From Gemmatimonadales bacterium (lineage in GTDB: Bacteria > Gemmatimonadota > Gemmatimonadetes > Gemmatimonadales > GWC2-71-9): DNA of 64,000 bases. Within the stretch, counting starts at the first letter, position 1. The number at the start of each line of letters is the position of its first letter. The stretch is from NCBI GenBank assembly GCA_044229245.1, contig JBGATI010000017.1, positions 16,830 through 80,829 of the forward strand, given 5' to 3'. The position numbers and the translations under genes were made by a program. Positions 37,164 to 63,215 of this stretch are shown one piece after another. The notes below the pieces were generated by a model. It ran no database searches and was not told the DNA's origin. It saw only the letters and a program-made list of their open reading frames with translations.

Positions 37164-37981
37164 AGCGCCGGCTGCAGTCGATCGGGCTTCACGCCCTGCT
37201 CGCCGTCGCGGCACTGCTCGCGGCCGCCCCGCTCCTGTGGATGATCTCCGCGTCGTTCATGCGCCCCGGGGAGGCCAACAGCTCGCCGCCACCGCTCCTC
37301 CCGAGACATCCGACGCTCGAGCACTACCGGGCGCTGTTCACGACCCTGAGCCTGGGCCGGTACTTCCTCAACAGTCTCTTCATCGCCGTCGGCGGGACCC
37401 TCCTGGCCATCGTGATCACGGGAATGGCCGGCTACGCCTTTGCGAAACTGCGCTTTCGGGGCCGAGAGCCGGTCTTCCGGGGGCTGCTTGCGGGGATGGT
37501 GATCCCGGGACAGGTGGCGATGCTGCCGATGTTCATCCTGCTCCGGGAGATGGGCCTCATCAACACCCTGTTCGGCGCGATGGTGCCGGTGCTCGCACCG
37601 ATCTACGGCATCTTCCTGGTGCGGCAGTACGCCCTCTCGATCCCGGACGACCTGCTCGACGCGGCCCGTCTCGATGGGGCGAGCGAGTTCCGCATCTTCC
37701 GCTCGATCGTCTTCCCCTCGCTCGCGCCCGTGCTCGCGACGCTCGGGGTCTTCACCTTTCTCAGCGCGTGGAACGACTTCATGTGGCCGCTCATCGTGCT
37801 GAGCGATGACGCCCACTACACCCTGCCGGTCGCGCTGGCCAATCTCGCGGGGGAGCATGTGCAGGATGTCGAGCTGATGATGGGGGGCGCGGTCGTGACG
37901 GTGCTCCCGGTCTTTCTCGCGTTCCTCTTCCTGCAGCGCTACTACATCCAGGGCATCATGGCCGGGAGCGTGAAGGGATGA
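37160..37981 (+). CDS. ABC sugar transporter permease (MalG/LacG type)
   Basis: ATGA overlap with the upstream permease. DDLLDAARLDGASEFRIFRSIVFP. Confidence 0.85.
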   Translation: MKRRLQSIGLHALLAVAALLAAAPLLWMISASFMRPGEANSSPPPLLPRHPTLEHYRALFTTLSLGRYFLNSLFIAVGGTLLAIVITGMAGYAFAKLRFRGREPVFRGLLAGMVIPGQVAMLPMFILLREMGLINTLFGAMVPVLAPIYGIFLVRQYALSIPDDLLDAARLDGASEFRIFRSIVFPSLAPVLATLGVFTFLSAWNDFMWPLIVLSDDAHYTLPVALANLAGEHVQDVELMMGGAVVTVLPVFLAFLFLQRYYIQGIMAGSVKG

Positions 37982-40900: not shown

Positions 40901-41118
40901 GGTGGGGACCGCTGAGTTACACCATGCGGCGCGACGAGGGGACCGTACGGGTGCAGCTCGCCGAGGGCGTCCACGTCCCGGCTGGCGGCGTGCGGGTATC
41001 TTCCCCCGCGCTCGCGCCCGTGCGGCGCGCGACCCTGAATGGCGCCCCGGCGGAGCTCGACCCCGAGGGCCGGGTCGTCGTGCGGAGTCTGCCGGCGGAG
41101 ATCGCGTTCGATTATTGA
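37978..41118 (+). CDS. Secreted 1046-aa protein: CBM-like jelly roll + F5/8-type-C (discoidin) domain + C-terminal GH15-like (alpha/alpha)6-type region; activity unknown
   Basis: ATGA overlap with the permease gene. Signal peptide MIASLLLVSLLARAQG. The discoidin-like stretch includes AMDGDTLTAWRS...YLRVRLL. The C-terminal half has YERSWIRDGS, which resembles the Y-x-x-x-W-x-RD motif of GH15-type barrels. Confidence 0.75.
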   Translation: MIASLLLVSLLARAQGDTLAPRLLDGFEQPGAWSAHPADGVSATLQGDRGRTGRALRMDFDFNGGGGYAIARRTLPIALPANYAFSFWMRGTSAPNTLEFKLIDASGENVWWYSERDRTFDGQWQKVTIRRRQISFAWGPLGGGELRQAASLELVITAGKGGGRGSVWFDELTLTPLPDLGPYDRTPIVSATANLALHPAAGAMDGDTLTAWRSGTAPASLTVDFQRPREFGGLTLSWEPDRAARDYDVLLSDDRREWRVVRRVRGSDGGRDDLDLPDSESRYLRVRLLSPAGKAGFGLAELTVQPLAFGASRNAFFTAIARDALPGSLPRYYSGVRSYWTVVGVDAAPEEALINEDGAVEAGKGDFSIEPFLYDGGLIGWHNVSRHVSLEDGVLPMPTVAWTAGDLTLRITAFAIGPASASSVIVRYRVANTGRVTRKPILYLAARPFQVNPPWQFLNTQGGAARIDSLRWNGKALVVNGSRRVIPFAPPRRIGATSFDGGEIVGHLRTGRLPLATAARDPSGAASAALGWPLSIPAGDSAEVAIEIPLRPRSGANLAPARTALVAEAMAEVAGDWHEKLDHTDITLPESGAHLARTIKSTLAWILVNRDGAAIQPGSRSYERSWIRDGSLTSTALLRFGHAEEVRDFITWFAPYQYTSGKVPCCVDARGADPVPEHDSHGEFIYLVMEYYRQTGDRPLLEQMWPHVQLAAAYIDSLRQTRLTPEYQGGEKRDFLGLLPPSISHEGYSAKPMHSYWDDFFALRGLKDAAEMAAILGHTGEAKRLADLRDALRHDILASLDAVMSRHHIDYIPGAADLGDFDATSTTIAVAPVGEEATLPRAALRETFERYWRNTQQRLEPSAEWDAYTPYELRTVGTMLRLGWKDRALRLMDMFLADQEPPEWNQWPEVVWHDRRAAKFIGDSPHTWVGSDFLRSAADLFAYEREEDSTLVVGAGVNDAWLDGPGVGVRALHTWWGPLSYTMRRDEGTVRVQLAEGVHVPAGGVRVSSPALAPVRRATLNGAPAELDPEGRVVVRSLPAEIAFDY

Positions 41119-41162
41119 CGGGCGCGAGCGCCCGTCGTTCTGCCTCTGGAGGAACTGCTCTC

Positions 41163-44100: not shown

Positions 44101-45017
44101 CGCTCTGCGACCTCCGGGAAGACAGCACCCGCGCGGCGCGCTATCGCAGCTGGCAGCGGGAGCTCGGCACGGCGCTCAACGCGGGCGGCTGGGACGGCGA
44201 GTGGTATCGCCGCGCCTACTACGACAATGGCGCGCCGCTCGGCTCGAAGCAGAGCGATGAGTGCCGCATCGATGCGATCGCCCAGGCCTGGGCCATTCTC
44301 TCCGGCGCCGCGCCCGCGGAGCGGGCCACCCAGGCGCTCGACGCGCTGGAGCAGCACCTGGTGAGCGAGGAGGACGGCATCATCCGGCTGCTCACTCCGG
44401 CGTTCGACAAGACCCCGAACGATCCCGGGTACATCAAGGGCTATCTGCCGGGCGTGCGGGAGAACGGCGGCCAGTACACCCATGGCGCCCTCTGGGCGGT
44501 GCGGGCGCTGGCGGAGGCGGGACGTGGTGAGCGGGCGGCGGCGCTGCTCGAGATGCTGAGCCCGGTGAGCCACGGGCGCACCCAGGCGGAGGTCGGGCGT
44601 TACCAGGTCGAGCCCTATGTCGTCGCCGCCGATGTCTACGGTGTCGAGCCGCATCTCGGCCGCGGCGGATGGACCTGGTACACCGGATCCGCGGGCTGGA
44701 TGTTCCGCGTCGCCCTGGAATCGATTCTTGGGGTCACCGTGACCGGCGGCGAGGCACTGCTGCTTTCGCCCTGCATTCCGAAGGCGTGGCCGGGCTACAG
44801 CGTGCGCTACCGGATGCCGAACGACACCACGAGCTACGAGATCACGGTGACCCGTAGCCGCGCAGAGCACACCGTCGCAACGCACGACGGCGCACCGCTC
44901 GCAATCGAAGGGCGCGCCGTCGTTGTCCCGCTCATCCGGGATGGGCAGAAGCACCTGGTGGAGGTCAGGCTCGGGCCCGACGTCGGCCCGGTCTACACCC
45001 CACGACGCCTAGAGTAA
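41163..45017 (+). CDS. GH94-family glycoside phosphorylase, NdvB/Cgs C-terminal type (predicted 1,2-beta-oligoglucan phosphorylase)
   Basis: GGAGGA lies 9 nt before the GTG at 41163. LLSNGRYRVLLTGAGAGSS, TRWSGDRTRDADGFFLYIRD and the later GDWNDGMN and WYTGSAGWM are GH94 signatures. No signal peptide. Confidence 0.8.
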   Translation: MGPYAQLLSNGRYRVLLTGAGAGSSSLDALALTRWSGDRTRDADGFFLYIRDLDRGHLWGAGRQPVERAPDRYRTRSGPGRAEIVREDDGIVTTLDVCVDPDADAEIRLLALTNRSRKPRRLDVTSYAEVALNAPAADAAHPAFSKLFVQTEFLERHEALLARRRPRSPDEQPVYMGHRLLVDRATEDDTPAIETDRARFIGRGRTLGRPAALDAGATLSGTTGNVLDPVLVMRRTVELAAGESVRLIAILTAGLDRDKVVACLTAGYAARTTEIFRAAQQRDLARLKQAGVPRDWRERLPLLTGALAYGAPLSSPGAELPEPSTLVTGDARALGLAGGVPLVVARVGAPPTAHAVLQLARVASYWRSAGFPVDLLVVDDLDSEELRAGLPATLIAGRTVVRRSSEIPAELLELVDRAARFTMLGTPPEVRNYVGEVPAAKFHPVHDERGDTPLEKTETLQFDNGFGGFSPDGTEYVIRLPRERGELRRPPLAWSNVIANEELGFLTTDGGGGYTWSVNSRENRLTPWSNDPITDPPGEAIYLRDEDSGLFWSPLPGPVPGAGGYEVRHGFGYTRTRHESQQLGQEVVAFVPRHDGVKLVRVQVTNRSARARRLSAFAYCEWVLGVVPGDTTRFVTTEHDQATAAILAVNPHNVEFSSRVAFAALVGPDGSVATESSADRRTFLGQLGSTARPAAIVSGEPLDGRAGAGLDPCAAFRVPLTLAPGETAEFLFLLGEASNREAARIVIRRYQSSATTTAALDGIVAFWRETLGRIQVQTPSPAIDLMVNGWLAYQNLSCRMWGRSAFYQSGGAFGFRDQLQDAAALIYLDPDITRQQILLHAAHQFVEGDVLHWWHPPLSKGIRTRFADDLLWLPYITAGYIRHTGDFAILGEPARFLTAHQLPPGEDEVFLIPKDSGQSADLYEHCCRVLDRSLTKGVHGLPLMGTGDWNDGMNRVGREGRGESVWLGFFLYHILDGFLPLCDLREDSTRAARYRSWQRELGTALNAGGWDGEWYRRAYYDNGAPLGSKQSDECRIDAIAQAWAILSGAAPAERATQALDALEQHLVSEEDGIIRLLTPAFDKTPNDPGYIKGYLPGVRENGGQYTHGALWAVRALAEAGRGERAAALLEMLSPVSHGRTQAEVGRYQVEPYVVAADVYGVEPHLGRGGWTWYTGSAGWMFRVALESILGVTVTGGEALLLSPCIPKAWPGYSVRYRMPNDTTSYEITVTRSRAEHTVATHDGAPLAIEGRAVVVPLIRDGQKHLVEVRLGPDVGPVYTPRRLE

Positions 45018-46358
45018 CGAGGCGCCGTTGGTCCGAATGACCTCGGCGTAGAGCTCGGCGCTCGCCTTCCGGGTCCGTTTCTGGGTGGCGTAGTCCACGT
45101 GATAGAGCCCGAACCGCTTCGAGAAGCCATGGCTCCACTCGAAGTTGTCGAGCAGCGACCAGGCGAAGTAGCCGCGCAGGTCGACACCGGCCGCGATGGC
45201 ACGATGCGCGGCCCGCAGATGTTCGCGGTAGTAGTCGGTGCGGAGCGGGTCGGAGAGCACCGGACCATCGGCGCTCGGCGGATCGGGAAAGGCGGCCCCG
45301 TTCTCCGTGATGTACAGCGGCACCGGGCCGTAGCGCTGGTGGACCCAGAGGAGCACGTCGGTCAGCGCCTGGGGATAGACCTCCCAGTCGGTGGCGGTGT
45401 AGATGTGCTGCGGCTGGCGGACCCGGCCCGCGCGCACCGGCAGTTCGGCGGGGGCATCGCAGGTGACGGCGCGGGTGTAGTAGTTGATGCCGAGGAAGTC
45501 GAGCGGCTGGCGGATGAGGGCGAAATCCTCCTCGGGGAATTCGGGCCAGTCGGCGCCGTAGATCTCGCGCAGTTCGTCGGGATAGCTCCCGAAGAAGACC
45601 GGATCGAGATACTGCCGGTTCATGTACGCATCGGCGCGCCGGGTCGCGGCGAGGTCCTCGGGGCGATCGGTCGCCGGGTACTTCGGCTCGAGATTCACCA
45701 CGAGGCCGGGATTCCGGCCCCCTTCGGCCCGGATCGCCTGCATGCCCATCCCGTGCGCGCGGAGCAGGTTGTGGCTCGCAATCGGGGTCTCGGCGACGCT
45801 CTTGTGGCCCGGCGCGAGCGTCCCGAAGAGGTAGCCGCCGTCGGTGACGACCCAGGGCTCGTTGAGCGTCGCCCACATCGCGGCGCGGTCGCCCAGGGCG
45901 CGGACCATCACGGTGGCGTAGTCGGCGAACCAGCCGGCGATGTCGCGGTTGAGCCAGCCCCCCTCGTCGTCGAGGGCCGCCGGCAGGTCCCAGTGGTAGA
46001 GCGTGATGTTGGGCTGGATCCCGTGCTTCACCAGGGTGTCGGTGAGCCGGTCGTAGAAGGCGAGTCCCTTCGGATTCACGGGACCGCGGCCGGAGGGCAT
46101 GACCCGGCCCCAGGAGATGCTGTAGCGGTAGCTGGCGAGACCGAGGTCGCGCATCAGCCGGACATCGTCCTCGAAGCGGCGATAGTGGTCGCAGGCCACG
46201 TCCCCGGTGTCGTCGTCGGTCACCATGCCGGGCGTGTGGGAGAAGCGGTGCCAGATGCTCGCGCCGGCGCCATCGGCCAGCGGTGAGCCTTCGATCTGGT
46301 AGGCGGATGTGGCGGCACCCCAGAGGAAGCCGTGGGGAAAGTGATTCGATTCAGACAT
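45009..46358 (-). CDS. GH1 beta-glucosidase
   Basis: FPHGFLWGAATSAYQIEG, TLNEPW and ITENGAA (the two catalytic Glu motifs). The start is the ATG at 46358. Confidence 0.9.
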   Translation of the reverse strand: MSESNHFPHGFLWGAATSAYQIEGSPLADGAGASIWHRFSHTPGMVTDDDTGDVACDHYRRFEDDVRLMRDLGLASYRYSISWGRVMPSGRGPVNPKGLAFYDRLTDTLVKHGIQPNITLYHWDLPAALDDEGGWLNRDIAGWFADYATVMVRALGDRAAMWATLNEPWVVTDGGYLFGTLAPGHKSVAETPIASHNLLRAHGMGMQAIRAEGGRNPGLVVNLEPKYPATDRPEDLAATRRADAYMNRQYLDPVFFGSYPDELREIYGADWPEFPEEDFALIRQPLDFLGINYYTRAVTCDAPAELPVRAGRVRQPQHIYTATDWEVYPQALTDVLLWVHQRYGPVPLYITENGAAFPDPPSADGPVLSDPLRTDYYREHLRAAHRAIAAGVDLRGYFAWSLLDNFEWSHGFSKRFGLYHVDYATQKRTRKASAELYAEVIRTNGASLL

Positions 46359-46375
46359 TCTCAGAAGGCATGCCG

Positions 46376-47443
<1,068 letters not shown>

Positions 47444-53214: not shown

Positions 53215-54465
53215 TCAGCGCAGCGGGGCAGGCAGCTTGATGAAGAAGACCTCGTTGAAGTCCGCGCCATCCAGTTTGGGCAGCAGCTTCGGCGCCGGCC
53301 CCTCGATCACCCCGAAATCGTCGTCGTTCGAGATCGCGATGGTGCTGTTGTCGACGATCGTGATTCCCTCCGGCTTGTCGTGGGGATAGCCGAGGGCGAG
53401 GAGGTCCACGAGCAGTTCCTTCTTCACCGGTACGATGCCGGCCGCCTGCAGCTCAGCGGGGGCGATCGACTCGAGACTCTTGCCGCCGAACAGCATCCCG
53501 TCGGGGCCGTTGGCGGGATCGGAGACGTCGGTAGCCCCGGTCAGGTCGATCTTGTACACCCGCTTGGTCACGGCGGGCTTGGCCGAGTCGCCCGGCATGT
53601 TCCCGTCCCGCTCAATCACCAGGAAGTGGTCCTTGTCGATGGAGACGATATCGCTGTTGCGGTTGTCGGCCGCATCCTGGAGATAGACGAACTGGCTGCT
53701 CTGCCCCGTCCTGGTGTCGTAGCGGAGCAGTCGGGTGATGGTCGACTTCCGTCCGAGATCCTTCGGGTTGTCGAGCGGGCCCTCGAAGATTGCCACGATG
53801 GTCTTGCGGTCAGGCAGGAGAGTCAGCCCCTCGATGCCACGATTGGCCCGGCGCTTCTGGAGCACCTGCGGAAGCGCGGAGGAGCCGCCGGTGAAGGGAC
53901 TGTAGCGCTCGACCGTGCGGCCATTCTTGTCGAGGTGAAGCAGGCTCGGGCCATACTCCTCGGAGATCCAGAAGCCGCCATCCTTGAGTGCCACGACGCC
54001 CTCCGGATCGACCCCTTCCGCGTCGGAGCGCAACATCTTGCCGTCCGTGCCGAGCGCGGTCTCGCCGGTACCGCCGAGACCGATGAGCGGCGGGATGCCC
54101 GAGAGGGGCTTCTTCTCCTTGTTGGACATTTCGATCTTGGCGACCTGCGTGAGGACGCCGTTCTCGAGCTTGAAGCGACCGATCCGCGGGACGAAGCCCG
54201 GCTGCACGAAGGCCTTGGTGTCCTTGCCGTCATCGTAATTCGGGCCGCGGTCGGCGAGCAGGTAGAAGAAGCCCGGAGCGGCCGGATCCGCAGCGATCCC
54301 GGAACCGTACCCGGCATCGAAGACCTCCACTCCCTTGACGGTCGCCAGGACGGTCCTCGGCAGTACTTTCGCGATCACCGGTGGCTCCTGCTGCAGCTGC
54401 CAGGTCGCCGCAGCACCAGCCATTACCAAACCAAGGGGCATTACCGCCCGCGTCACGAGACCCAT
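53215..54465 (-). CDS. Secreted esterase-like-activity-of-phytase family protein (beta-propeller)
   Basis: DAEGVDPEGVVALKDGGFWISEEYGPSLLHLDKNG and NRGIEGLTLLPD resemble the PF13449 family. Confidence 0.7.
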   Translation of the reverse strand: MGLVTRAVMPLGLVMAGAAATWQLQQEPPVIAKVLPRTVLATVKGVEVFDAGYGSGIAADPAAPGFFYLLADRGPNYDDGKDTKAFVQPGFVPRIGRFKLENGVLTQVAKIEMSNKEKKPLSGIPPLIGLGGTGETALGTDGKMLRSDAEGVDPEGVVALKDGGFWISEEYGPSLLHLDKNGRTVERYSPFTGGSSALPQVLQKRRANRGIEGLTLLPDRKTIVAIFEGPLDNPKDLGRKSTITRLLRYDTRTGQSSQFVYLQDAADNRNSDIVSIDKDHFLVIERDGNMPGDSAKPAVTKRVYKIDLTGATDVSDPANGPDGMLFGGKSLESIAPAELQAAGIVPVKKELLVDLLALGYPHDKPEGITIVDNSTIAISNDDDFGVIEGPAPKLLPKLDGADFNEVFFIKLPAPLR

Positions 54466-54552: not shown

Positions 54553-55818
54553 GTGCAACGAACTGGTAAAACCGGCCGGATTCGGCCGGAGACAGGCCCG
54601 CCAGAGGAGCCGGTGCGACCGATCAAGGTTGACCCCCCTTCCTTTAGGCGGCATCATCCACCCGTGGCGACGACCGCGAAAAGCCCCGCTCCCCCCGTGA
54701 GCGGCCCGGTTCCGGAAGGGACCGACCTCACCGAAACCCCTCCTGTCGACGAGCACCGGGAGTCCGCCGTTGCGGCGGGACTCCGGTACGTCACCGACTC
54801 GATGCCGGGGATCCGGCGCAAACGCGTCGGCCGGGGCGTGTCCTACCTTCGCCCCGACGGCTCCCGGGTCAAGGACCCGGCGACACTCAAGCGGATCCGC
54901 GGCCTGGTGATCCCGCCCGCCTGGACCGATGTGTGGATCTGTCCCTTCTCCGAGGGGCACATCCAGGTCACCGCCCGCGATGCCAAGGGACGCAAGCAAT
55001 ATCGCTATCACCCCCGGTATCGCGCCGTCCGGGACGAGACCAAGTTCGGCCGGATGCTCGAGTTCAGCGAACTGCTGCCGGGCATCCGTGAACATCTCGA
55101 GCACGATCTCGCGCTCACCGGCCTTCCCCGCCCCAAGCTGCTCGCCACCGTCGTGTGGCTGCTCGAGCGCACCTTCATCCGCGTCGGCAACGACGAATAC
55201 GCCCGGGACAACCGCTCCTACGGGCTCACCACGATGCGGCGCCGGCACCTGACGGTCTCCGGGTCGCGGATGGATTTCGAGTTCCGCGGCAAGAGCGGCG
55301 TGAAGCACGCGCTCTCGGTCACCGACCGCCGCATCGCCCGCATCGTCCAGCACTGCCAGTCGCTCCCCGGCGAGGAGCTGTTCCAGTATCTGGATGAGGA
55401 TGGGAAGCGGCAGTCGGTGGACTCGGGGGACATCAACGAGTATCTGCGGACGATCAGCGGGCGGGAGGTCACGGCGAAGGACTTCCGCACCTGGGCCGGG
55501 ACGATGCTCGCCGCCAACGCGCTCTGCAAGCTGGGCCCGGCGCCGAACGACAAGCAGGCCAAGGCGAACATCGTCGCGGCGGTGGATGAGGTGGCCAAGC
55601 GGCTGGGCAATACCCGTGCGGTCTGCCGCAAGTACTACGTGCATCCGGTGATCATCGAGGCTTACCTCCAGGGACAGGTGCCGCCGATTCCCCCCGAGCC
55701 GCCGACCCCCTCCCGCGATCACCCGTCGGCCAAGATTCGCCGCGACGAGGCGATCGTGCTGAACTTCATTCAGACGTGGGGGAAGGACTCGCCGGCGCCT
55801 GCCTCAACTGAATCCTAG
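54553..55818 (+). CDS. Type IB DNA topoisomerase (bacterial poxvirus-like TopIB)
   Basis: LRYVTDSMPGIRR, IPPAWTDVWI, RDAKGRKQYRYH, FRGKSGVKH, KDFRTWAGT and the catalytic-Tyr context CRKYYVHP. The true start is probably an internal GTG (54664 or 54697). Confidence 0.85.
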   Translation: MQRTGKTGRIRPETGPPEEPVRPIKVDPPSFRRHHPPVATTAKSPAPPVSGPVPEGTDLTETPPVDEHRESAVAAGLRYVTDSMPGIRRKRVGRGVSYLRPDGSRVKDPATLKRIRGLVIPPAWTDVWICPFSEGHIQVTARDAKGRKQYRYHPRYRAVRDETKFGRMLEFSELLPGIREHLEHDLALTGLPRPKLLATVVWLLERTFIRVGNDEYARDNRSYGLTTMRRRHLTVSGSRMDFEFRGKSGVKHALSVTDRRIARIVQHCQSLPGEELFQYLDEDGKRQSVDSGDINEYLRTISGREVTAKDFRTWAGTMLAANALCKLGPAPNDKQAKANIVAAVDEVAKRLGNTRAVCRKYYVHPVIIEAYLQGQVPPIPPEPPTPSRDHPSAKIRRDEAIVLNFIQTWGKDSPAPASTES

Positions 55819-56078: not shown

Positions 56079-57278
56079 CTACTCTCCCCCGTAGACGACG
56101 CCTCGCTTCTCCGGCCCGACTGCCGCGATGACCGCCCCGCCGAGGAAGACCGTCGCCGCCGTGCAGGCCATGGCCCAGGTGTAGCTGAAGCGCGCCGCAA
56201 AGATCGCCTCGATGTACACGACACTCCCCGCCACCAGCACGCCGCATTGATAGGCAAATCCTGGCAGGAATCCGCGCACCGCGTCGGGGGCCAGCTCGGT
56301 GATGTGCGCCGGGATCACCCCCCAGGCGCCCTGCACCATGAACTGCATCAGAAAGGCGCCGACGAACAGCACCGGCAGTGACGGGGCAAAGGCCCACGCC
56401 GGGATCATCACCAGCGCGCCGACCAGGGCGGTGACCATCGCCCGACGGCGGCCGATCCGGTCCGAGTACATCCCGAACAGCACCCCGCCCAGTACGGCGC
56501 CCACCATCGAGACCGCGGTCAGCACGGCGCGGCGCTGCGGCGTGAAGCCCCAGTCGCGCTGGAGGAAGGTCGGATAGAGGTCCTGGGTGCCGTGGGAGAC
56601 GAAGTTCATCATCGTCATCAGCGCCCAGAGATACAGGAAGATTCGCCAGTGCGAGAGAATCCCCCGGCCGAGCTGGGACCAGTCCTTGTGCCGGGTACGC
56701 TGCCATACCTCCGACTCGGGCACCTTGAAGCGGACGTAGATGGCGAGCAGCGCGGGCAGCCCGCCGATGAAGAACATCGGTCGCCAGCCCCACCGCGGAA
56801 AGACGATCAGGTAGCACAGCGCCGCGAGCAGATAGCCGACGGCATAGCCCTGCTGGAGCAGTCCGGAAAAGAGGCCGCGCAGCCTCGGCGGGACCTTCTC
56901 CATCACCAGGGAGGCGCCGACTCCCCACTCGCCTCCCATGCCGATGCCGAACAGCGCCCTGAGCACCAGGAAGGTTCCATAGCTCGGCGCGAGCCCAGAC
57001 AGCACCTCGATGAACGCATAGAAGATGAGATTGACCATCAGCGGGATGCGCCGGCCATAGCGGTCGGCCATCAGCCCGAAGATCAGCGCGCCCACCGGGC
57101 GGAACGCCAGCGTCACGGTGACCGAGAGCGCGAGTTCGGCGTCGGTGCGGCCGAACTCCTTGGCGATCGCGGTCAGCGTCATGACCACGACGAAGAAGTC
57201 GAAGGCGTCGAGCGTCCAGCCGAGGAACCCGGCGAGGACGGTGGCGCGGTGCCCGGAGGCAGCGTCTGATGGGGTCAT
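56079..57278 (-). CDS. MFS transporter (12 TM; anion/sugar-acid porter-like)
   Basis: Start is the ATG at 57278 (MTPSDAAS). GLMADRYGRRIPL and SDRIGRRRAM are the MFS loop 2-3 and 8-9 motifs. Confidence 0.85.
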   Translation of the reverse strand: MTPSDAASGHRATVLAGFLGWTLDAFDFFVVVMTLTAIAKEFGRTDAELALSVTVTLAFRPVGALIFGLMADRYGRRIPLMVNLIFYAFIEVLSGLAPSYGTFLVLRALFGIGMGGEWGVGASLVMEKVPPRLRGLFSGLLQQGYAVGYLLAALCYLIVFPRWGWRPMFFIGGLPALLAIYVRFKVPESEVWQRTRHKDWSQLGRGILSHWRIFLYLWALMTMMNFVSHGTQDLYPTFLQRDWGFTPQRRAVLTAVSMVGAVLGGVLFGMYSDRIGRRRAMVTALVGALVMIPAWAFAPSLPVLFVGAFLMQFMVQGAWGVIPAHITELAPDAVRGFLPGFAYQCGVLVAGSVVYIEAIFAARFSYTWAMACTAATVFLGGAVIAAVGPEKRGVVYGGE

Positions 57279-57340
57279 GGGTGGCGGGAAGTATGCGCCC
57301 GGATTGGGGACCCGGCTAGCGACCAGGAGCCGGGAGTCGG

Positions 57341-57372
57341 GGTGCAGCGACTTGAGCCAGCGCGTGCGGTTC
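57341..57372 (-). promoter_or_regulatory. GGTGCAGCGA plus a degenerate second copy (CGTGCGGTTC) 22 bp away, upstream of the MFS gene
   Basis: The 10-mer recurs in the sites at 63183-63215, and its 3' 9 nt also in the second repeat at 61187-61215. The second half-site matches only about 5/10. Confidence 0.3.
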
Positions 57373-57456
57373 AGTCGGGACGGATGTCCTCCTCGTCCGC
57401 AGCCCGAATCGCGGGGAGCCGGCGGCGACGCGGACCGCGCGGGAGGGGAGTCGCGG

Positions 57457-57771
57457 CTACTCCGGCATGCATCCCCGAGGCGAGTACCTGAGCGGGATCG
57501 AGTCCCGCCTCGCGAGCGTGTCGCGTGCGACGGGCCGCGTGGGGGGCGCCGCATGCCGCTGTGGTGGTTGGGTCCGCGGGGCCTTCGCCTGATCCCGCCC
57601 GAGGCGGAGCGAATCCATCATGAACCCGTTCGCACGGACGAAAGCGGTATCGAAGTGCTCGGCCGCAGCGACCGCCACCGGAGCGATGCCGTCCCGAGCG
57701 CCGGCCACGATCGCTCCCAGCCCGAGCAGTGCAAAGGCGACGCTCAGCCCGCGTGGGAGACCATCGCTCAC
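57457..57771 (-). CDS. Possible small membrane protein, last gene of the sulfur operon
   Basis: The GTG overlaps the upstream TGA (GTGA). One TM helix (LSVAFALLGLGAIVAGA). The C-terminal half is low-complexity, so this may be non-coding. Confidence 0.3.
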   Translation of the reverse strand: MSDGLPRGLSVAFALLGLGAIVAGARDGIAPVAVAAAEHFDTAFVRANGFMMDSLRLGRDQAKAPRTQPPQRHAAPPTRPVARDTLARRDSIPLRYSPRGCMPE

Positions 57772-58349
57772 CGCTTCCTCCCTGCCGTCAGCCGTTCAAT
57801 CAGCAGGAACGCACCGAGCGCCAGCAACGTGATGCTCCCGACCACCACTCCAGTCGGCAGACCGAGCAGATCGGACAACGTCGCCCCCGGCATCGGGGTC
57901 GATTCGAGGAACGGCCCGAGCGAGCCGGCGACCTCACCGAACACCAGCATGCCCGCCACCATGCCGACGAGCGCCGCGAGGCCATCGAGTCGTCCGCTCA
58001 CACTGGCCACGCATGAGGTGCCCGGGCAGTAGCCGGCGAGCACGAAGCCCGCCCCGAATATCAGTCCACCCACGAGCTGCGGCAGGACGTAGGTCGGAGG
58101 AACAAGGAGCGCCGCCCGATCGAGCACCCCGGACCGCTCGGCCCAGTAGAGGCCCAGCATCGCCGTGATGATGGCGGTGAACATCACCTTGAACACGGTG
58201 AGGTCCCGGAAGTAGAACTGTCCGCTGAGCTTCCGGCCGTCACCGAGACCTCCCCGCTCGAGCGCCGCACCGAAGCCGGCGCCGAGGAGAAGCGCGAAGC
58301 CGAGGCCGAACGGCTGCGGCATGCCGTCCAGCGGAAAGGTCAGCCCCAT
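57768..58349 (-). CDS. YeeE/YedE-family half-size membrane protein (sulfur-compound transport)
   Basis: FGAGFVLAGYCPGTS contains the conserved Cys loop. 10-nt overlap with the upstream gene. Confidence 0.8.
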   Translation of the reverse strand: MGLTFPLDGMPQPFGLGFALLLGAGFGAALERGGLGDGRKLSGQFYFRDLTVFKVMFTAIITAMLGLYWAERSGVLDRAALLVPPTYVLPQLVGGLIFGAGFVLAGYCPGTSCVASVSGRLDGLAALVGMVAGMLVFGEVAGSLGPFLESTPMPGATLSDLLGLPTGVVVGSITLLALGAFLLIERLTAGRKR

Positions 58350-58873
58350 TGCCGCCTCACAAACCAGGCGGAGAGATACCCGCCTCCGAACAGGGCGAGC
58401 ATGAACACCCAGCTCCCTACCCCCAGCAGCGCGCCACCGGTGAGCGCGAGTCCGCTGGTGCAGCCGCGTGCCAGTGCGGCCCCGAACCCCATCACGCAGC
58501 CTCCGGTCGCGGCACAGGCGAGTCGCGCCGGGTCCCTGACTCGATCTCCGCGGGTGACGCAGAGACGCACCCGACCTGCGCGTCTCGCCGAGTAATAGGC
58601 GCCGAGCATGAGGCCCAGCACCTCGAAGACGATCCAGTAGCGAACGGCGAACGGCGTCGCGGTGCGCTCGTCGGCATAGAACGGGTTGGCGGTGACCTGC
58701 GCCGGAAGCAGCAGGCGCATGGCATCGCCGGTCACGGTCCGGACCGCGCCGATGACGCCCAGCCCTCGGCCGGCGATCAGGAACGAGGCGAGGAGCACCA
58801 GGCCAAGGGCGACGCCAGCGAGATAGGGGTTGGCGTATCGTTCCCCGGGATCAGTGGCGGAAGTAGGCGGCAT
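58340..58873 (-). CDS. YeeE/YedE-family half-size membrane protein (sulfur-compound transport)
   Basis: Start is the ATG at 58873. GFGAALARGCTSGLALTG contains the conserved Cys loop. 23-nt overlap with the upstream gene. Confidence 0.8.
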   Translation of the reverse strand: MPPTSATDPGERYANPYLAGVALGLVLLASFLIAGRGLGVIGAVRTVTGDAMRLLLPAQVTANPFYADERTATPFAVRYWIVFEVLGLMLGAYYSARRAGRVRLCVTRGDRVRDPARLACAATGGCVMGFGAALARGCTSGLALTGGALLGVGSWVFMLALFGGGYLSAWFVRRQWG

Positions 58874-60197
58874 AGTCGACGCTCCCCCTTGGGTGGGTGT
58901 AGTCCCCGTGCGCGGGGTCGTACGCGTATCCGTCGGCGTACCTCCCTTCGGCGATCGCCGTGACCGCCTCCACAAGGCGGAGCACCTCCTCCCGCGTGTT
59001 GTCGAGACCGAAGCTCACCCGCACCGCTCCGGGCAGCGGATGGCCGGACGGGACGGACCGCTCGTCGATGCCGAGCAGATGCCGGATGTACGCCTGCGCG
59101 CAGAAGCACCCACTCCGGGTTCCGATGCCCCACTCGGCCCCGAGGATTCCCGCGACCAGGCCGTGCGGCAACCCCCTGAGGTTGAAGGAGACGACCCCGA
59201 CCCGTGGCCGCGCCGTGCCGCCGTAGAGGGTGAGGCCGGGAATCGCGCCGAGTCGCTGCAGCGCGAGCTGAGTCAGCTCCGCCTCCCGGGCCACGATCCG
59301 GCGCCACCCGATCTCGTTGCAGTAGCGGAGCGCGGCCGCGAGAGCCACGGCGCCCATGATGCATGGCGTGCCGGCCTCCTCGCGCGCCGGCAGCGTCGTC
59401 CAGATGACCTCCTGCTCCGCGACCCGGCTCACCGTGCCACCTCCGACCTGGTACGGCGCGCCTGAGGCGAAGAGGGCGCGCGGTGCCACCAGCACGCCAG
59501 CCCCGAACGGTGCGTAGAGCTTGTGCCCGGAGAAGACCAGGAGATCGAGGTGACGCGGGTCATCCGGGTGTCCCAGTTCGATCGGGCGATGCGGGGCAAG
59601 CTGGGCGGCATCCACCATGATGCGAGCGCCCGCCGCGTGGGCCCACTCCGCCCAGGTGTGCACCGGATTGAGCAGGCCGGTGACGTTCGACGCACCCGTC
59701 ACCGCGAGCAGTGCGACTCGGCCCCGATACGCCGCGAGCTTCGCGACGAGATCCGATTCATCCACCGCGCCGTCCGCCGTGAGCCCGACATGCACGACCT
59801 CCGCGACCCGCCGCCACGGGAGCTCGTTGGAGTGATGCTCCATGAGGGTCGTCAGTACCACGGCACCGGAGGCCAGTGGATAGCGCGCCGCGAGCTGGTT
59901 GATCGCCTCACTGGTGTTGCGGGTGAAGATCACCACACCATGCGCATCATCCACGCCAAGGTGCCTGGCGATATCCTCGCGCGCAGCCTCGTAGGCCCAG
60001 GTGCTGAGGCGCGACTTGAAGCCGGCGCCCCGGTGCACGTTGCCGTACCAGGACGCGAGTCCATTGACCGCCTGGAGTGCCGCCTGGCAGGGTGGCGTGC
60101 TCGCGGCGTTGTCAAAGTTCACGTAGCTGGTCATCCCTCCTCCCAGCAGCGGCACCTGGACGTCGCCGCCGGCAACCAGGCCCATGGCGGCGGTCAT
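58851..60197 (-). CDS. Class-V aminotransferase-fold PLP enzyme, cysteine-desulfurase-like (MOCOS/NifS-like)
   Basis: The ATG at 60197 overlaps the upstream TGA (ATGA). PLP-Lys context FSGHKLYAPFGAGVL. Active-site Cys context GTRSGCFCAQ. Confidence 0.8.
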   Translation of the reverse strand: MTAAMGLVAGGDVQVPLLGGGMTSYVNFDNAASTPPCQAALQAVNGLASWYGNVHRGAGFKSRLSTWAYEAAREDIARHLGVDDAHGVVIFTRNTSEAINQLAARYPLASGAVVLTTLMEHHSNELPWRRVAEVVHVGLTADGAVDESDLVAKLAAYRGRVALLAVTGASNVTGLLNPVHTWAEWAHAAGARIMVDAAQLAPHRPIELGHPDDPRHLDLLVFSGHKLYAPFGAGVLVAPRALFASGAPYQVGGGTVSRVAEQEVIWTTLPAREEAGTPCIMGAVALAAALRYCNEIGWRRIVAREAELTQLALQRLGAIPGLTLYGGTARPRVGVVSFNLRGLPHGLVAGILGAEWGIGTRSGCFCAQAYIRHLLGIDERSVPSGHPLPGAVRVSFGLDNTREEVLRLVEAVTAIAEGRYADGYAYDPAHGDYTHPRGSVDYAAYFRH

Positions 60198-61114
60198 TTC
60201 GTGTGCAGACTCCGATTGGCGCCCTCCACCGGGAGGTCGCTGCGGCCGCTCCACTCCTGGAAGGAGCCGTCGTAGAGCCGCACGTCGTAGCCGAGATAGC
60301 GGGCCGCGAACCAGACGAGCGAGGCCTGCTGACCGATGTGGCAGTAGCCGACCACCGTCTTTCCCCTGGTCACGCCGGCCGCGGCAAACTTCGCCTCCAG
60401 CGTGGCGCGATCAAGCAGATGATTCTGGTCGTCCACGAGCCGGTCATATGGCAGGCTCTTCGCGCCAGGAATGTGTCCGCCCCGGGGCATCTCGTTGTCG
60501 AGCGTGTCGAGATAGAAGCCGGGATCACGCGCGTCGATGAGGGCGATCTCCGGCGAATCGAGCCGCGCCTTGAGCCAGTCCGCCGTCACAATGACATCCG
60601 GCCTGAAGGCGGTCTTGAAATGGCCCGGCGTCACCGCGGGGACCTCGGTCGTCACCGGGTTGCCGGCTGTCACCCAGGCCGGGAGGCCGCCGTCGAGCAG
60701 CGACACCCGCCCGCGAAGCCCCGCGGCCTCGAGGGTCAGCACCGCGCGGGTGGAGGGTGAGACCCAGTCGTTGGCGAAGTAGACGATCACGCGCGAGTCA
60801 TTGGAGACGCCCTTGGCCGAGAAGACCGAGTCGAGTTTCGCCGCCGAGGGAAGTTCGAGCATCAGCGGCATCGGCGTCGCGGTCATGTCGTGCGGCGTCG
60901 AGAGGTCACGAAAGTCCAGTCGCTGCGCGCGGGGGATGTGGCGGGCCGCATACTCCTCCGGACGGCCGATCTCGAAGAGGACCAGGCCAGGATCGTGCAG
61001 GTGCGCGGCGAGCCACGCGGGCGAGACCAGGATCGGCTCGGCGCGTGCCGCGGGGGCGGCGGGGGCAGGATCAGTGGCGAAGATGAGGGACGAAGCGAGC
61101 AGCAGTGCCAGCAT
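60194..61114 (-). CDS. Tandem-rhodanese sulfurtransferase with a probable export signal
   Basis: GGGAGG precedes the ATG at 61114 (MLALLLASSLIFA). Two rhodanese modules. The active-site loop is YCHIGQQAS. The listed TTG start at 61180 sits 7 nt from the direct repeats and is less likely. Confidence 0.8.
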   Translation of the reverse strand: MLALLLASSLIFATDPAPAAPAARAEPILVSPAWLAAHLHDPGLVLFEIGRPEEYAARHIPRAQRLDFRDLSTPHDMTATPMPLMLELPSAAKLDSVFSAKGVSNDSRVIVYFANDWVSPSTRAVLTLEAAGLRGRVSLLDGGLPAWVTAGNPVTTEVPAVTPGHFKTAFRPDVIVTADWLKARLDSPEIALIDARDPGFYLDTLDNEMPRGGHIPGAKSLPYDRLVDDQNHLLDRATLEAKFAAAGVTRGKTVVGYCHIGQQASLVWFAARYLGYDVRLYDGSFQEWSGRSDLPVEGANRSLHTK

Positions 61115-61186
61115 GAGGCCTCCCGGGTGTGAAGTCGCTGTAACCGGCTTCACGATGGGAAGGCTGGCACGTCGGGACAATCAGTT

Positions 61187-61215
61187 TGCAGCGAACGGTC
61201 AACCGGTGCAGCGAA
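61187..61215 (-). promoter_or_regulatory. Direct-repeat pair TGCAGCGAA N11 TGCAGCGAA (20-bp period) between the LytTR gene stop and the rhodanese gene
   Basis: The copies are at 61187-61195 and 61207-61215. The architecture fits LytTR-family binding sites. Confidence 0.5.
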
Positions 61216-61236
61216 TGGCGGGAAGGGCGCGAGTCG

Positions 61237-62019
61237 TCAGAGCGCCTGGCCGAGCCGGGCCTCGAGGTGCTCGCGGCGGGCGCGGCTCAGTTTGAGCCGG
61301 GTCCCGTCCTGCAAGAGCAGGATATGCTCCCCCTTGAAGTAGGGCTGGAGCTCGCGGATCCGGTCGAGATTCACGATGGCGGAGCGATGCACGCGGAAGA
61401 ATCGGGCGGGATCGAGCCGGGCCTCGAGGGCGTTCAGCGATTCCCGGAGCAGGTGCACCTGCCCCCGGGTGTGGAGCTTCACGTTGTAGTCCGCCGCCTC
61501 GATCCAGTCGAGATCCTCCACCCGGACGAAGGCCACGCTCCCCTCGTGTTTGACGATGAGCCGGGTCAGCCGCGGCTCGGACGGGGCCGCACGACCGCGA
61601 TCCTCGAGCAGCCCGACCAGCCGGCGGCTGAGCTCGCCGAGCTCGGCGCTCCGGAGACTCTTCTTGGCACGGTCGAGTGCCTCGGCGAAGCGTTCATCGT
61701 CGAAGGGCTTGAGCAGGTAATCCAGCGCGTGCACCTCGAAGGCCCGGAGGGCGTGCTGATCGTACGCCGTCACGAAGATCACCGCCGGCATCCGGTCCCG
61801 CGGCAGCGTGCGCAGGACCTCGAAGCCGTCGAGCTCCGGCATCTGCACGTCGAGGATCAGCAGGTCAGGCTGCAGAGTCCGGATGGCCTCGACGGCGGCG
61901 CGGCCATCGGCGGCCTCCCCGACGACGGCGATCTCCGGATCCCTGGCGAGGAGCTGTACCACTCCCGTCCGCGCCAGCGGCTCGTCATCCACCACGAGCA
62001 CCCGGACGGGCGCGCTCAT
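61237..62019 (-). CDS. LytTR-family response regulator
   Basis: ATGA overlap with the kinase gene. REC domain (VLVVDDEPLAR ... LLILDVQMP). The C-terminal LytTR domain includes VRVEDLDWIEAADYNVKLHT ... FFRVHRSAIVNL. Confidence 0.9.
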   Translation of the reverse strand: MSAPVRVLVVDDEPLARTGVVQLLARDPEIAVVGEAADGRAAVEAIRTLQPDLLILDVQMPELDGFEVLRTLPRDRMPAVIFVTAYDQHALRAFEVHALDYLLKPFDDERFAEALDRAKKSLRSAELGELSRRLVGLLEDRGRAAPSEPRLTRLIVKHEGSVAFVRVEDLDWIEAADYNVKLHTRGQVHLLRESLNALEARLDPARFFRVHRSAIVNLDRIRELQPYFKGEHILLLQDGTRLKLSRARREHLEARLGQAL

Positions 62020-63143
62020 GCGATCGCCGGCACCGGGGACGCCGGCCGGGTGCGAAACGGCAGCGTGATGCGCGCGATGACCCCACCCCCGTCCGCCTCG
62101 CGCAATTCGAAGGACTGCTCGCCGCCATAGAGCCGGGCGAGGCGCTCGCGGATGTTGCGCAGCCCGACCCCGGTGCTCGGCACGGGCGTGCGGGAGTCGT
62201 CGAGCCCGGGACCGTCGTCCCGCACTGTGAGCAGCAGCCGGTCGCCGTCGCGCGCGGCGGCGATCTCTACCAGACCGGCGGCCGCCCTCCGGCCGATGCC
62301 ATGCCGAATGGCGTTCTCCACCAGCGGCTGCAGCAGCAGATTGGGCACCCACGCCTCCGCGGTGCCGGGAGCGGTGTTCACCACGACCTGCAGCCGGTCC
62401 TGGAATCGCACCCGCTCGATCGCCAGGTACCGTTCGAGAAATCCCAGCTCCTCGGCCAGCGGGACCTCGAGGGCCGGGTGCTCCTGCAGCACGTAGCGCA
62501 TGAGCTCGCTCAGTCCCGCGAGGGCGCGGACCGCCTCATCGTTGCGCTTCGCGCGGACCAGCATCGCCACGCTGTTCATCGCATTGAAGAAGAAGTGCGG
62601 GTTGAGCTGGTTGCGGAGGGCCTCGAGCTGGCTCTCCGCCAGCTGCACCGCGAGGTTCGCCGCCGCGCGCTCCCGCTCCCGAAAGCGGCGATAGTACCCC
62701 GCGGCATAGAGGAGCCCGAGGATCGAGCCGTAGGCCGGCAGGTCGAAAGTCAGGGAGCGGATCGCACCGACCAGCAGCCCGATCCCGAGCGTCGCCGGTG
62801 TCGAGAAGTGGATAATGCCAAAGGCGAAGGTGATGAGGCTCTGAATGACGGAGTGCAGCATCGTGACCGCGATCGCCACGATCAGGTGGAGCAGCACCTT
62901 GGCCAGCGGCCACTCGCCTTCGAGCGGCACCCGGTTCACAAACCAGATGATGATCGGGGCCAGCAGTATCCAGATGAACCAGTAGGGCATCCCCATCTTC
63001 AGCGCATGGGCGATCGTCGGATCGCCGCCATGCTGCAGCATCGAGAGATGGTGTTCGCCGGAGCCGATGGCACCGAGCACGGTGGCGACACCGAGCGCGA
63101 CGAGGAACAGCTGCCGGCCGATGGGGAGCGGGGAGTCGTCCAT
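62016..63143 (-). CDS. LytS/YehU-type sensor histidine kinase (polytopic sensor + His_kinase + HATPase_c)
   Basis: LNPHFFFNAMNSVAMLV is the PF06580 H-box. Start is the ATG at 63143 (MDDSP); the listed 63152 is a TTG. Confidence 0.85.
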   Translation of the reverse strand: MDDSPLPIGRQLFLVALGVATVLGAIGSGEHHLSMLQHGGDPTIAHALKMGMPYWFIWILLAPIIIWFVNRVPLEGEWPLAKVLLHLIVAIAVTMLHSVIQSLITFAFGIIHFSTPATLGIGLLVGAIRSLTFDLPAYGSILGLLYAAGYYRRFRERERAAANLAVQLAESQLEALRNQLNPHFFFNAMNSVAMLVRAKRNDEAVRALAGLSELMRYVLQEHPALEVPLAEELGFLERYLAIERVRFQDRLQVVVNTAPGTAEAWVPNLLLQPLVENAIRHGIGRRAAAGLVEIAAARDGDRLLLTVRDDGPGLDDSRTPVPSTGVGLRNIRERLARLYGGEQSFELREADGGGVIARITLPFRTRPASPVPAIA

Positions 63144-63182
63144 GCGCGTCAAGCTACGCGCCGGACCCGGTGGGGAGAAGGC

Positions 63183-63215
63183 TGGTGCAGCGAAAGTCGC
63201 TCCTGGTGCAGCGAG
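63183..63215 (-). promoter_or_regulatory. Direct-repeat pair CTGGTGCAGCGA N9 CTGGTGCAGCGA (21-bp period) 40-72 nt upstream of the LytS-type kinase gene
   Basis: The 12-mer copies are at 63183-63194 and 63204-63215. They share the core of the pair at 61187-61215. Confidence 0.5.

Follow-up and report, generated by a model that had tools for sequence, protein, structure and literature searches.

A regulated operon around a split YeeE-type transporter as a candidate relay for sulfane sulfur in Gemmatimonadota and Proteobacteria

Organization of the operon

Import of sulfur into the cytoplasm has been called poorly understood (PMC11582611). Here we describe an operon of a Gemmatimonadales bacterium (assembly GCA_044229245.1) that combines what appear to be the two halves of a YeeE-type transporter with a tandem rhodanese, a pyridoxal phosphate (PLP) enzyme of class V and a small protein, open reading frame 5 (ORF5). 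The operon lies in a stretch of 64,000 nucleotides from contig JBGATI010000017.1 (positions 16,830 to 80,829), which we call the window and in which positions are counted unless another locus is named. An earlier note on this stretch had proposed a chain-coupled operon of sulfur-trafficking parts, and we followed it up by comparison with related loci, numbered with the prefix L; the nearest relatives are metagenome-assembled genomes (MAGs) of Gemmatimonadota.

The five overlapping minus-strand genes are a real operon, as had been proposed (Table 1). The overlaps, in 5' to 3' order, are 4 nt (ATGA), 23 nt, 10 nt and 4 nt (GTGA), exactly as first described, a Shine-Dalgarno-like purine-rich stretch lies 5-9 nt 5' of every start, and the motifs CHIGQQA, RSGCFCA, ARGCTSG and AGYCPGT were all found in the translations. 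Pfam searches returned two rhodanese domains (112 bits) and Aminotran_5 (277 bits) for the first two products, and Sulf_transp (PF04143, cut-off 27 bits) for YeeE-A (77 bits) and YeeE-B (62.5 bits). The 23-nt and 10-nt overlaps and the 4-nt overlap of ORF5 are the same in relatives of 71-81% identity (L081 and L082/L083), although the synonymous divergence (dS) is 0.6-1.0; the rhodanese and PLP genes share 4 nt in L082 and 1 nt in L081. These overlaps make translational coupling possible. Overlapping genes are common in GC-rich operons, and a fixed stoichiometry, as in the proposal of stoichiometric co-translation, does not follow from the overlaps alone.

ORF5, which had been listed as doubtful, is a real gene. 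Its GC content at third codon positions (GC3) is 0.80-0.87, its ratio of nonsynonymous to synonymous divergence (dN/dS) is 0.24-0.35 compared with 0.12-0.28 in the neighbour genes, and nine other homologue clusters were found, the gene taking the same position at every locus examined. Scanning 57000-61500 for promoters and terminators gave no sigma-70-like site and a single hairpin of terminator type, within YeeE-A, at chance rate; in this GC-rich genome the scan is uninformative.

Table 1 Genes and candidate regulatory sites of the operon and its upstream region, with positions in the window.
Feature	Position	Strand	Remarks
Tandem rhodanese	60194-61114	minus	306 aa; ATG start, GGGAGG upstream
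Class-V PLP enzyme	58851-60197	minus	448 aa
YeeE-A	58340-58873	minus	177 aa
YeeE-B	57768-58349	minus	193 aa
ORF5	57457-57771	minus	104 aa; GTG start, GGGAGG upstream
LytS/YehU-type membrane sensor histidine kinase	62016-63152	minus	Pfam PF06580 and HATPase_c; no periplasmic domain evident
LytTR response regulator	61237-62019	minus	Pfam receiver and LytTR; start overlaps kinase stop by 4 nt
Candidate operon operator	61187-61215	minus	two exact TTCGCTGCA direct repeats, 20 bp apart
Candidate autoregulatory operator 5' of kinase gene	63186-63215	minus	CTCGCTGCA at 63207-63215 and TTCGCTGCA at 63186-63194, 21 bp apart

The YeeE halves

Both small membrane proteins could be placed on the YeeE of S. 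thermophila (phmmer, 8J4C/6LEO). Residues 79-174 of YeeE-A align with 239-329 of that protein, setting ARGCTSG against AGGCNIG, which holds Cys293 on the periplasmic side, while residues 19-110 of YeeE-B align with 5-93, setting GYCPG against GGCAS, which holds Cys91 on the cytoplasmic side. Each half thus keeps its cysteine loop, in line with the earlier note; the position of Cys22 is occupied by Gly in YeeE-B. On the Sulf_transp profile the two proteins cover positions 175-309 (YeeE-A) and 11-153 (YeeE-B).

Hydropathy gives four transmembrane (TM) segments in YeeE-A and five in YeeE-B, the fifth of which (168-184, followed by ERLTAGRKR) is the equivalent of helix 7. This tail is positively charged and the loop ahead of the last TM segment has no Lys or Arg, and the central loop of YeeE-A carries eight Lys/Arg residues. 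In the published YeeE structure the N-terminus is outside and the C-terminus inside, and helix 7 reverses the two halves (PMC7449682). On this basis we predict that YeeE-B comprises helices 1-7, with its N-terminus out and its C-terminus in, and that YeeE-A comprises helices 8-13. From the alignments we infer that the two proteins would form one YeeE-type channel in which both essential cysteines are kept.

The NCBIfam TsuA models were not passed by the halves (45.6 bits, cut-off 400; 36.4 bits, cut-off 645). Judged by these matches, the split protein is a member of the YeeE/YedE family and not of the TsuA type, and it resembles the half-size PmpAB/YedE1E2 pairs in which a split YeeE has already been described (PMC11582611, PMC10812762), with the split at a different point.

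The exported rhodanese

The first protein contains two PF00581 stretches, and CHIGQQA in the second aligns with the CRIAERS loop of 1UAR. It is thus a tandem rhodanese whose second domain bears the catalytic Cys, in a loop of six residues. The loop differs from those of classical thiosulfate and 3-mercaptopyruvate sulfurtransferases (TST/MST), CG[ST]GVTA and CRKGVTA, and CH(I/V)GQQ is a hallmark of the family (about 40 sequences). The loop is non-canonical, as the earlier note had seen. The score against the 3-mercaptopyruvate sulfurtransferase model NF008557 (108.6 bits) stays below its cut-off of 250.

The part of the protein that aligns with 1UAR and 1E0C begins near residue 26, which leaves a hydrophobic N-terminal extension, MLALLLASSLIFA...ARA. 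Such an extension is present in all rhodanese orthologues examined, and family members from other lineages, proteobacterial ones included, carry textbook Sec signal peptides such as MKKMLLVLACLIAAAAIA-SPRQ. The suggested signal peptide therefore finds support both in the window and in distant CH(I/V)GQQ proteins, and we predict an exported tandem sulfurtransferase with a distinctive loop. Of the two N-termini that had been considered, the ATG start preceded by GGAGG is conserved; an alternative TTG start at 61180, which would add a twin-arginine-like SRRASL, was rejected because this extension is not conserved in L081-L083.

The PLP enzyme and its sister enzyme

For the PLP enzyme the best profile was SufS (TIGR01979; 282.5 bits, cut-off 475.1), with 17 families matching below threshold, and the closest solved structures are desulfurases of the SufS/CsdA type. 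Cys366, the second Cys of GCFC, aligns with the catalytic Cys of SufS (rsgcfCaq against raghhCaq/ragthCaq), and SGHK, in the segment SGHKLYAPFG with the PLP lysine, aligns with the GHK lysine of SufS. Both the lysine and GCFC, set in an R(S/N)GCFCA loop, are invariant in 29 of 29 aligned members of the family. Assignment to SufS, CsdA, SclA, EgtE or the encapsulin-cargo group was rejected, as all scores lie under the curated cut-offs. We predict a cytoplasmic, group-II-like (SufS/CsdA-like) cysteine desulfurase.

The earlier note had placed the RSGCFCA cysteine with the NifS domains of molybdenum cofactor (Moco) sulfurases. The signature of MOCOS/ABA3, which we take to comprise EFxRLD...YLDxxGxxLY...GNPHS and, around the PLP lysine, SFYKxFGxPTGxG in the NifS-like domain, together with GCFCN as the loop and MOSC as the C-terminal domain, shares only GCFC with the window enzyme, whose N-terminus is SufS-like (YVNFDNAASTP) and in which Pfam finds no MOSC domain. 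A second PLP enzyme, encoded downstream in sister operons and here called PLP2, has 26-33% identity to the window enzyme and carries RGGCFCNPGA, EFxRLD...YLDYxGxALY...GNPHS and SFYKxFGYPTG, again without a MOSC domain; apart from MOSC, these motifs match the signatures that we assume for MOCOS/ABA3. GCFC also forms the catalytic loop of the MOCOS-looking PLP2; by profile and by solved structures the window enzyme is closest to SufS/CsdA. By these comparisons, two different class-V families that share the GCFC loop have been recruited to the same gene set.

The window enzyme, for which an exact-sequence look-up had no match, belongs to a large family that numbers thousands of clusters in databases and occurs in at least 598 species-level genomes. 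Among 80 genome loci of this family, the order rhodanese-PLP-YeeE-A-YeeE-B occurs only in Gemmatimonadota (L001, L002, L005 and L011), and the PLP gene stands alone in loci from Chloroflexota, Calditrichota, Zixibacteria, WOR-3, Bacteroidota and others. One of the four, L001 (Gemmatimonadota MAG JBDTRF010000168.1; P0012), encodes an in-frame rhodanese-PLP fusion of 779 aa (L001:3268-5613), whose rhodanese is the second tandem rhodanese of the locus and has the loop CTVGMRA.

In 17 of the loci L001-L080, which we read as Anaerolineae (L066 and L074, for example), a lone PLP gene diverges from cell-division (dcw) genes that we read, from their sequence alone, as mraZ, rsmH, ftsL and a penicillin-binding protein (PBP). 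These are the only recurring neighbours outside Gemmatimonadota; a functional link to the PLP family was considered and set aside, the adjacency being probably lineage-specific synteny.

The profile matches also bear on a role in selenium handling, in which a YedE-like protein would take up selenium, the PLP enzyme would act as a selenocysteine lyase and the rhodanese would be the selenium carrier. There are sub-threshold matches to YedE/FdhT (31 bits, cut-off 350) and SclA (130 bits, cut-off 525), and of the rhodanese to ExtH (53 bits, cut-off 200), and SufS-type enzymes often accept selenocysteine. Every such match, however, is far under its curated cut-off, the best structural and profile matches are thiosulfate transporters and SufS, and no selD, selenoprotein or YedF-type gene was found in the operon or the neighbours examined. 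We consider this explanation very improbable and do not retain the selenium species that the earlier note had named among the substrates.

A membrane-anchored protein with a C-terminal cysteine

ORF5 consists of a TM helix (7-27), an invariant HFDTAFVRANGFMMDSLRLGR, a variable and disordered linker rich in Pro and Ala, and an invariant C-terminal RYSPRGCMPE; it has no Pfam match. The AlphaFold model (mean pLDDT 58, low confidence) shows the TM helix and one short helix in a chain that is otherwise largely disordered.

In 80 metagenome loci retrieved with a YeeE-B profile, nearly all loci that are long enough have a gene, which we call X, directly after YeeE-B. The two genes mostly share 4 nt, and in seven loci they are fused; the fused forms are those of L002, L086, L098, L128, L130, L146 and L162. 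X consists of an N-terminal anchor, one rhodanese-like domain whose catalytic Cys is replaced (LYSEGGAHAAQAW), a conserved FGG motif and a basic tail that runs to a terminal Gly-Cys, with the endings RRRGC, KKKEGC, SGGCG and RRGCAF. Short forms of 44-57 aa comprise only the anchor, a linker and ...YKP(P/A)SGC. AlphaFold models residues 30-172 as a rhodanese fold with pLDDT above 94, followed by a tail of about 25 residues below 50, and a Foldseek search with the model returned single-domain rhodaneses. Named members of this family, which exceeds 1000 clusters at 90% identity, come from Steroidobacteraceae, Sphingomonadales and other Pseudomonadota.

The position of the cysteine is the constant feature. 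The tethered protein that follows or is fused to YeeE-B has a Cys within its last four residues in 58 of 66 evaluable loci, against a background of 12%, and the protein ends in Cys itself in 46 loci, against 3.8%. Among the eight exceptions, several are frameshifted or have X genes that the filter missed. In an alignment of 32 X proteins the C-terminal Cys is the sole invariant one. Variants of the design occur: in L002 and L086, YeeE-B extends into one extra TM segment, a Pro-rich linker and a C-terminal ...SPI(K/A)C, and L011 has, coupled through ATGA, a lipoprotein-like ORF with the C-terminus ...KPRGCFE. X can be fused through exactly one TM segment to the cytoplasmic C-terminus of YeeE-B, and one of its forms resembles a lipoprotein; from both features we predict that the tail lies on the periplasmic side of the membrane, which it would share with the exported rhodanese and the equivalent of Cys293.

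By its position, 4-nt coupling, anchor and terminal Gly-Cys, ORF5 is the positional and architectural counterpart of X, with homology not proven. Since L090 has the gene order of the window together with a long X, we suggest that ORF5 replaced X, or is a reduced X, in one clade. The earlier note had seen no YeeD- or TusA-like partner. No TusA/SirA match was found here either; the place of a partner is nevertheless filled, as ORF5 occupies the position of a near-universal membrane-anchored Cys protein.

The gene set across genomes

Beyond the loci named above, the full set is present in the closer relatives L081, L082/L083, L084 and L086. Loci with ORF5 have a rhodanese upstream in 6 of 6 cases and the upstream-type PLP gene in 5 of 6 (one being the remnant in L087 described below). 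Where X ends in RRRGC, the tandem rhodanese lies upstream (16/16) and a PLP enzyme downstream (18/19), and both loci of the short YKPxSGC type have the rhodanese upstream (2/2) and the PLP enzyme downstream (2/2). Two proteobacterial loci contain the whole unit of seven genes, namely a PF06580 kinase, a LytTR regulator, a tandem rhodanese, two Sulf_transp proteins, X and Aminotran_5, such sets occurring in Steroidobacteraceae and other Proteobacteria. The set is therefore syntenic in other genomes of both Gemmatimonadota and Proteobacteria; the earlier note had named the lack of such synteny as grounds for refutation. Relatives of YeeE-B occur in at least 539 metagenome stretches, and the system spans Gemmatimonadota and Proteobacteria from soil and rhizosphere samples.

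Loci of the KEGC type differ in that a rhodanese lies upstream in only 1 of 8 and a PLP enzyme is found in 0 of 12. Seven of them (L123, L125, L127, L137, L140, L162 and L163) lie downstream of genes for a molybdopterin oxidoreductase with a Tat signal, a 4Fe-4S protein and NrfD (Psr/Phs-like), and a MobA-like gene follows in four loci related to this type. Because these loci carry the YeeE halves and X with Psr/Phs-like genes instead, the comparison points to a constant core of YeeE-A, YeeE-B and the tethered Cys protein. On the same comparison, one major elaboration of this core adds the rhodanese, the desulfurase and the LytTR system.

These data also bear on the possibility that the genes have no joint function, their co-transcription being a matter of chance and ORF5 a lineage-specific orphan. 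Consistent with this, 72 of the 80 genome loci of the PLP family have no rhodanese or YeeE neighbour, and ORF5 is restricted to a narrow clade. Yet the same parts recur across phyla in two gene orders, rhodanese-PLP and YeeE-B-X fusions exist, the overlaps are conserved, and an in-frame deletion of the PLP gene in L087 keeps both coupling junctions. The comparative data thus largely refute this explanation, to which we give the least credence of all.

Regulation and flanking genes

A sensor kinase and a LytTR regulator are encoded upstream of the rhodanese (Table 1). Both repeat pairs of the window fit (C/T)TCGCTGCA, with a common 8-mer core, and the exact 9-mer has three copies in 64 kb, against 0.39 expected, all of them in the promoter regions of the kinase and rhodanese genes. 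Upstream of the rhodanese the repeats lie at -101 and -81 from the ATG; L081 and L082/L083 share these offsets, and the distant L011 has its repeats at -91/-71. Operators of LytTR regulators such as AgrA and AlgR are direct repeats about two helical turns apart, and the TCGCTGCA repeats are likely to be LytTR operators. The kinase/LytTR pair adjoins the operon, in either orientation, in at least 13 loci, including the window, L081, L083, L087, L011, L169, L170, L136, L147 and L151, and this synteny indicates that it belongs to the unit.

Where the regulator differs, so do the repeats. L002 and L086 have an OmpR-type regulator and different direct repeats, CTCGCACGAA, 5' of the rhodanese (L086:4930-5110, L002:5880-6060), so that regulator and operator seem to have been swapped together. 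In L088 the TCGCTGCA repeats are absent and an extracytoplasmic function (ECF) sigma factor stands in place of the two-component system.

The segment of L088 at the LytS/LytTR position (L088:3372-4755) encodes, besides the ECF sigma factor, a probable anti-sigma factor and a Metal_resist (PF13801) protein. In L087 the LytTR regulator appears as two ORFs (L087:4020-4705), one of 79 aa with the receiver and one of 149 aa with the LytTR domain. It may be a pseudogene in this lineage, which has lost the PLP gene as well, or the break may reflect an indel error in an apparently long-read assembly.

The type of regulator and the gene content help to assess a role in detoxification of reactive sulfur or sulfide, in which the system would clear excess cysteine or sulfane sulfur. 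In many bacteria half-size YedE1E2 pairs are found beside genes for persulfide dioxygenase, rhodanese, sulfide:quinone oxidoreductase (SQR) and TauE (PMC10812762), half-size YeeE pairs have been proposed in that role in operons of the BigR, CstR or FisR type, and a desulfurase with an export route would cut the cysteine/persulfide load. Against this, the roughly 100 loci inspected showed neither a persulfide dioxygenase nor SQR, TauE or a repressor that senses persulfide, and the regulator is a LytTR two-component system. Detoxification is, in our opinion, improbable.

Downstream of ORF5, a major facilitator superfamily (MFS) transporter gene (56079-57278) was considered as a further operon member and rejected: in L082 a DinB gene separates it from ORF5, its dN/dS is lower by a factor of 3-5, and it is missing from proteobacterial and other loci. 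Synteny with L081 and L082 also places in the window a bacterial type IB topoisomerase (54553-55818, plus strand; Top1B_N_bact and Topoisom_I) and a phytase-like protein (53215-54465, minus strand), which are conserved neighbours in close relatives and have no relation to the operon. Further away, 37978-46499 holds a carbohydrate-use cluster with a GH1 beta-glucosidase, a rhamnosidase-like protein with F5/8 type C domains, a MalK-like ABC ATPase and a very large GH94-type protein, a 1482-aa ORF with supersandwich and catalytic domains.

Direction of sulfur flow

Taken together, the data suggest a regulated relay that would move sulfane (persulfide) sulfur across the cytoplasmic membrane from Cys to Cys, with a leaning towards outward flow; we hold this reading tentatively, at somewhat less than an even chance. 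In the outward direction, sulfur from cysteine would be bound as a persulfide on the desulfurase, whose Cys would serve the inner channel mouth, and would pass through the channel to the tethered C-terminal Cys of ORF5 or X. This Cys may act as a swinging arm, as in SoxY or DsrC/TusE, shuttling sulfur between the outer channel mouth and the periplasmic rhodanese, from which it would reach a periplasmic acceptor. Experiments have demonstrated the transfer of persulfide from a desulfurase to a rhodanese in ABA3-STR18 and in a bacterial CD-Rhd fusion (PMC8931425). We lean to outward flow because a cysteine desulfurase supplies sulfur and enzymes of two unrelated desulfurase families have been recruited to the same gene set, and the retention of the desulfurase in most loci supports export. 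The lean is slight, and inward flow is nearly as likely. A more specific version, in which the swinging-arm Cys and the split YeeE form a trans-envelope persulfide wire, under LytTR control, that exports cysteine-derived sulfur from the GCFC desulfurase to the rhodanese, is rather unlikely as stated.

The strongest competitor is uptake and assimilation, in which the rhodanese would strip sulfane sulfur from thiosulfate or polysulfide and load the Cys arm, the split YeeE would import it and the PLP enzyme would be an accessory, for example a cytoplasmic acceptor acting through its CxC loop, or would serve unrelated cysteine turnover. The rhodanese has the fold of a thiosulfate sulfurtransferase, in the KEGC loci the YeeE halves and X stand beside a periplasmic Psr-like molybdoenzyme with no desulfurase encoded, and L087 and L088, which dropped the PLP gene and kept the rest, fit a module that can work without it. 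Uptake, on the other hand, gives no role to a cysteine desulfurase that is kept in 18 of 19 RRRGC-type and most Gemmatimonadota loci, nor to the presence of two different class-V families in the same operon type, and the operon encodes no cytoplasmic acceptor of the TusA, DsrE or YeeD type. We regard uptake as quite possible, if doubtful on balance. The uptake-plus-mobilisation module of the earlier note is thus retained as far as sulfur trafficking is concerned; its direction is not, since uptake would leave the desulfurase, a sulfur source, idle, and we assign no fixed direction.

Several observations weigh against an outward relay of the kind favoured here. The YeeE-family proteins studied so far, TsuA, SoxT1 and YedE1E2, are all importers (PMC11582611, PMC10812762, PMC7449682). 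The signal segment of the window rhodanese is short and has no basic n-region, and the L001 fusion places a signal-like N-terminus before its PLP domain, a start that would not be expected of a cytoplasmic desulfurase. Of two close relatives with the same chromosomal neighbours, L088 has no PLP gene, and L087 (ENA ERZ25039554 contig_20318) carries an in-frame deletion that leaves a 50-codon remnant (L087:5748-5900); both keep the rhodanese, the two YeeE halves and ORF5. The PLP enzyme is therefore ancestral to the cluster, not obligatory, and dispensable or replaceable in these two loci. The tethered protein raises points of its own: the ORF5 family is tiny (5 representatives in 1.84 billion proteins) and confined to a narrow clade, an hhalign comparison with X gave a probability of 2% and aligned only the TM segment, and L001 and L005 have the same gene order with no tethered Cys protein. 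Finally, the topologies were derived from hydropathy and charge, and the steps of the relay rest on sequence comparison.

The remnant in L087 is informative in another respect. It retains the PLP start overlapping the rhodanese stop and the last 35 or so codons, including the 23-nt overlap with YeeE-A, which suggests that coupling matters for expression of the downstream genes and looks as if selection had kept the two junctions.

Comparison with known systems

The hand-over of sulfane sulfur to or from YeeE-type transporters at the outer face of the membrane is a recognised gap. The locus and its relatives offer a concrete candidate for it, and the tethered C-terminal-Cys protein is a type of component that looks new. 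If the export-wire reading is true, this protein would be the first periplasmic partner described for any YeeE-family transporter, and the transporter the first to work outwards. Outward flow would reveal how bacteria supply the periplasm with reactive sulfur, while inward flow would mean a new route of thiosulfate/polysulfide uptake in abundant soil bacteria. In addition, two large uncharacterised groups of GCFC-loop, desulfurase-like proteins gain a defined context. The earlier note knew of no pathway with this combination, and in the literature searched we found no description of the seven-gene set or of the tethered partner; the split YeeE itself is known from PmpAB/YedE1E2.

TsuA-TsuB (YeeE-YeeD; 6LEO, 8J4C) shares with the locus the Sulf_transp fold, the equivalents of Cys91 and Cys293, and a small Cys-bearing partner whose gene adjoins that of the transporter and is fused to it in some organisms. 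TsuA, however, is a single protein of about 330-350 aa with nine TM segments, whereas the channel of the locus comes in two genes, split after helix 7 with the C-terminal half first, and has Gly at the position of Cys22. The partner at the locus is membrane-anchored, predicted to be periplasmic and equipped with a C-terminal Cys, unlike the TusA-like, cytoplasmic TsuB, and the locus further encodes an exported tandem rhodanese and an enzyme resembling cysteine desulfurases.

Sulfur carriers with a C-terminal Cys arm include SoxY, which ends in GGCGG-COOH, and DsrC/TusE, with PTGCV-COOH. They resemble ORF5 and X in the invariant Cys near the C-terminus, the Gly before it, the flexible tail and the sulfur-transfer context. 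They show no sequence or fold relation to ORF5 and X, which are membrane-tethered, putative carriers with a tail that is basic (RRRGC, KKKEGC) or ends in PRGCMPE.

In the Wolinella Sud-PsrABC system, a periplasmic rhodanese-like transferase of polysulfide sulfur serves a polysulfide reductase. There too a periplasmic rhodanese fold stands beside a membrane complex, and the KEGC-type loci lie directly downstream of Psr-like genes; Sud, however, is soluble with a canonical active-site Cys, whereas X is anchored and lacks that Cys, and the window has no Psr genes.

A class-V desulfurase working with a rhodanese is known from IscS-ThiI/YnjE, ABA3-STR18 and the CD-Rhd of Pseudorhodoferax (PMC8931425), and the two are naturally fused in L001; the GCFC loop is common to the window enzyme and the MOCOS/ABA3-looking sister enzyme PLP2. 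These relays differ from the locus, where the rhodanese is predicted to lie across the membrane from the desulfurase, with the channel between them, and where the desulfurase-like enzyme of the window falls under the cut-offs of SufS and all other curated families.

Also close to the locus is PmpAB/YedE1E2 of Serratia and Cupriavidus, a transporter of zero-valent sulfur encoded by two adjacent genes with one conserved Cys each, in which A is the C-terminal and B the N-terminal half, in the same order as here, and for which a heterodimer has been proposed. The PmpAB/YedE1E2 halves have about 130 aa and 4 TM segments each and no helix 7 (PMC11582611), compared with 177 and 193 aa and a fifth TM segment in YeeE-B. 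Their partners are a persulfide dioxygenase and the TusA-like PmpC, and those at the locus described here are an exported rhodanese, a tethered Cys protein and a PLP enzyme.

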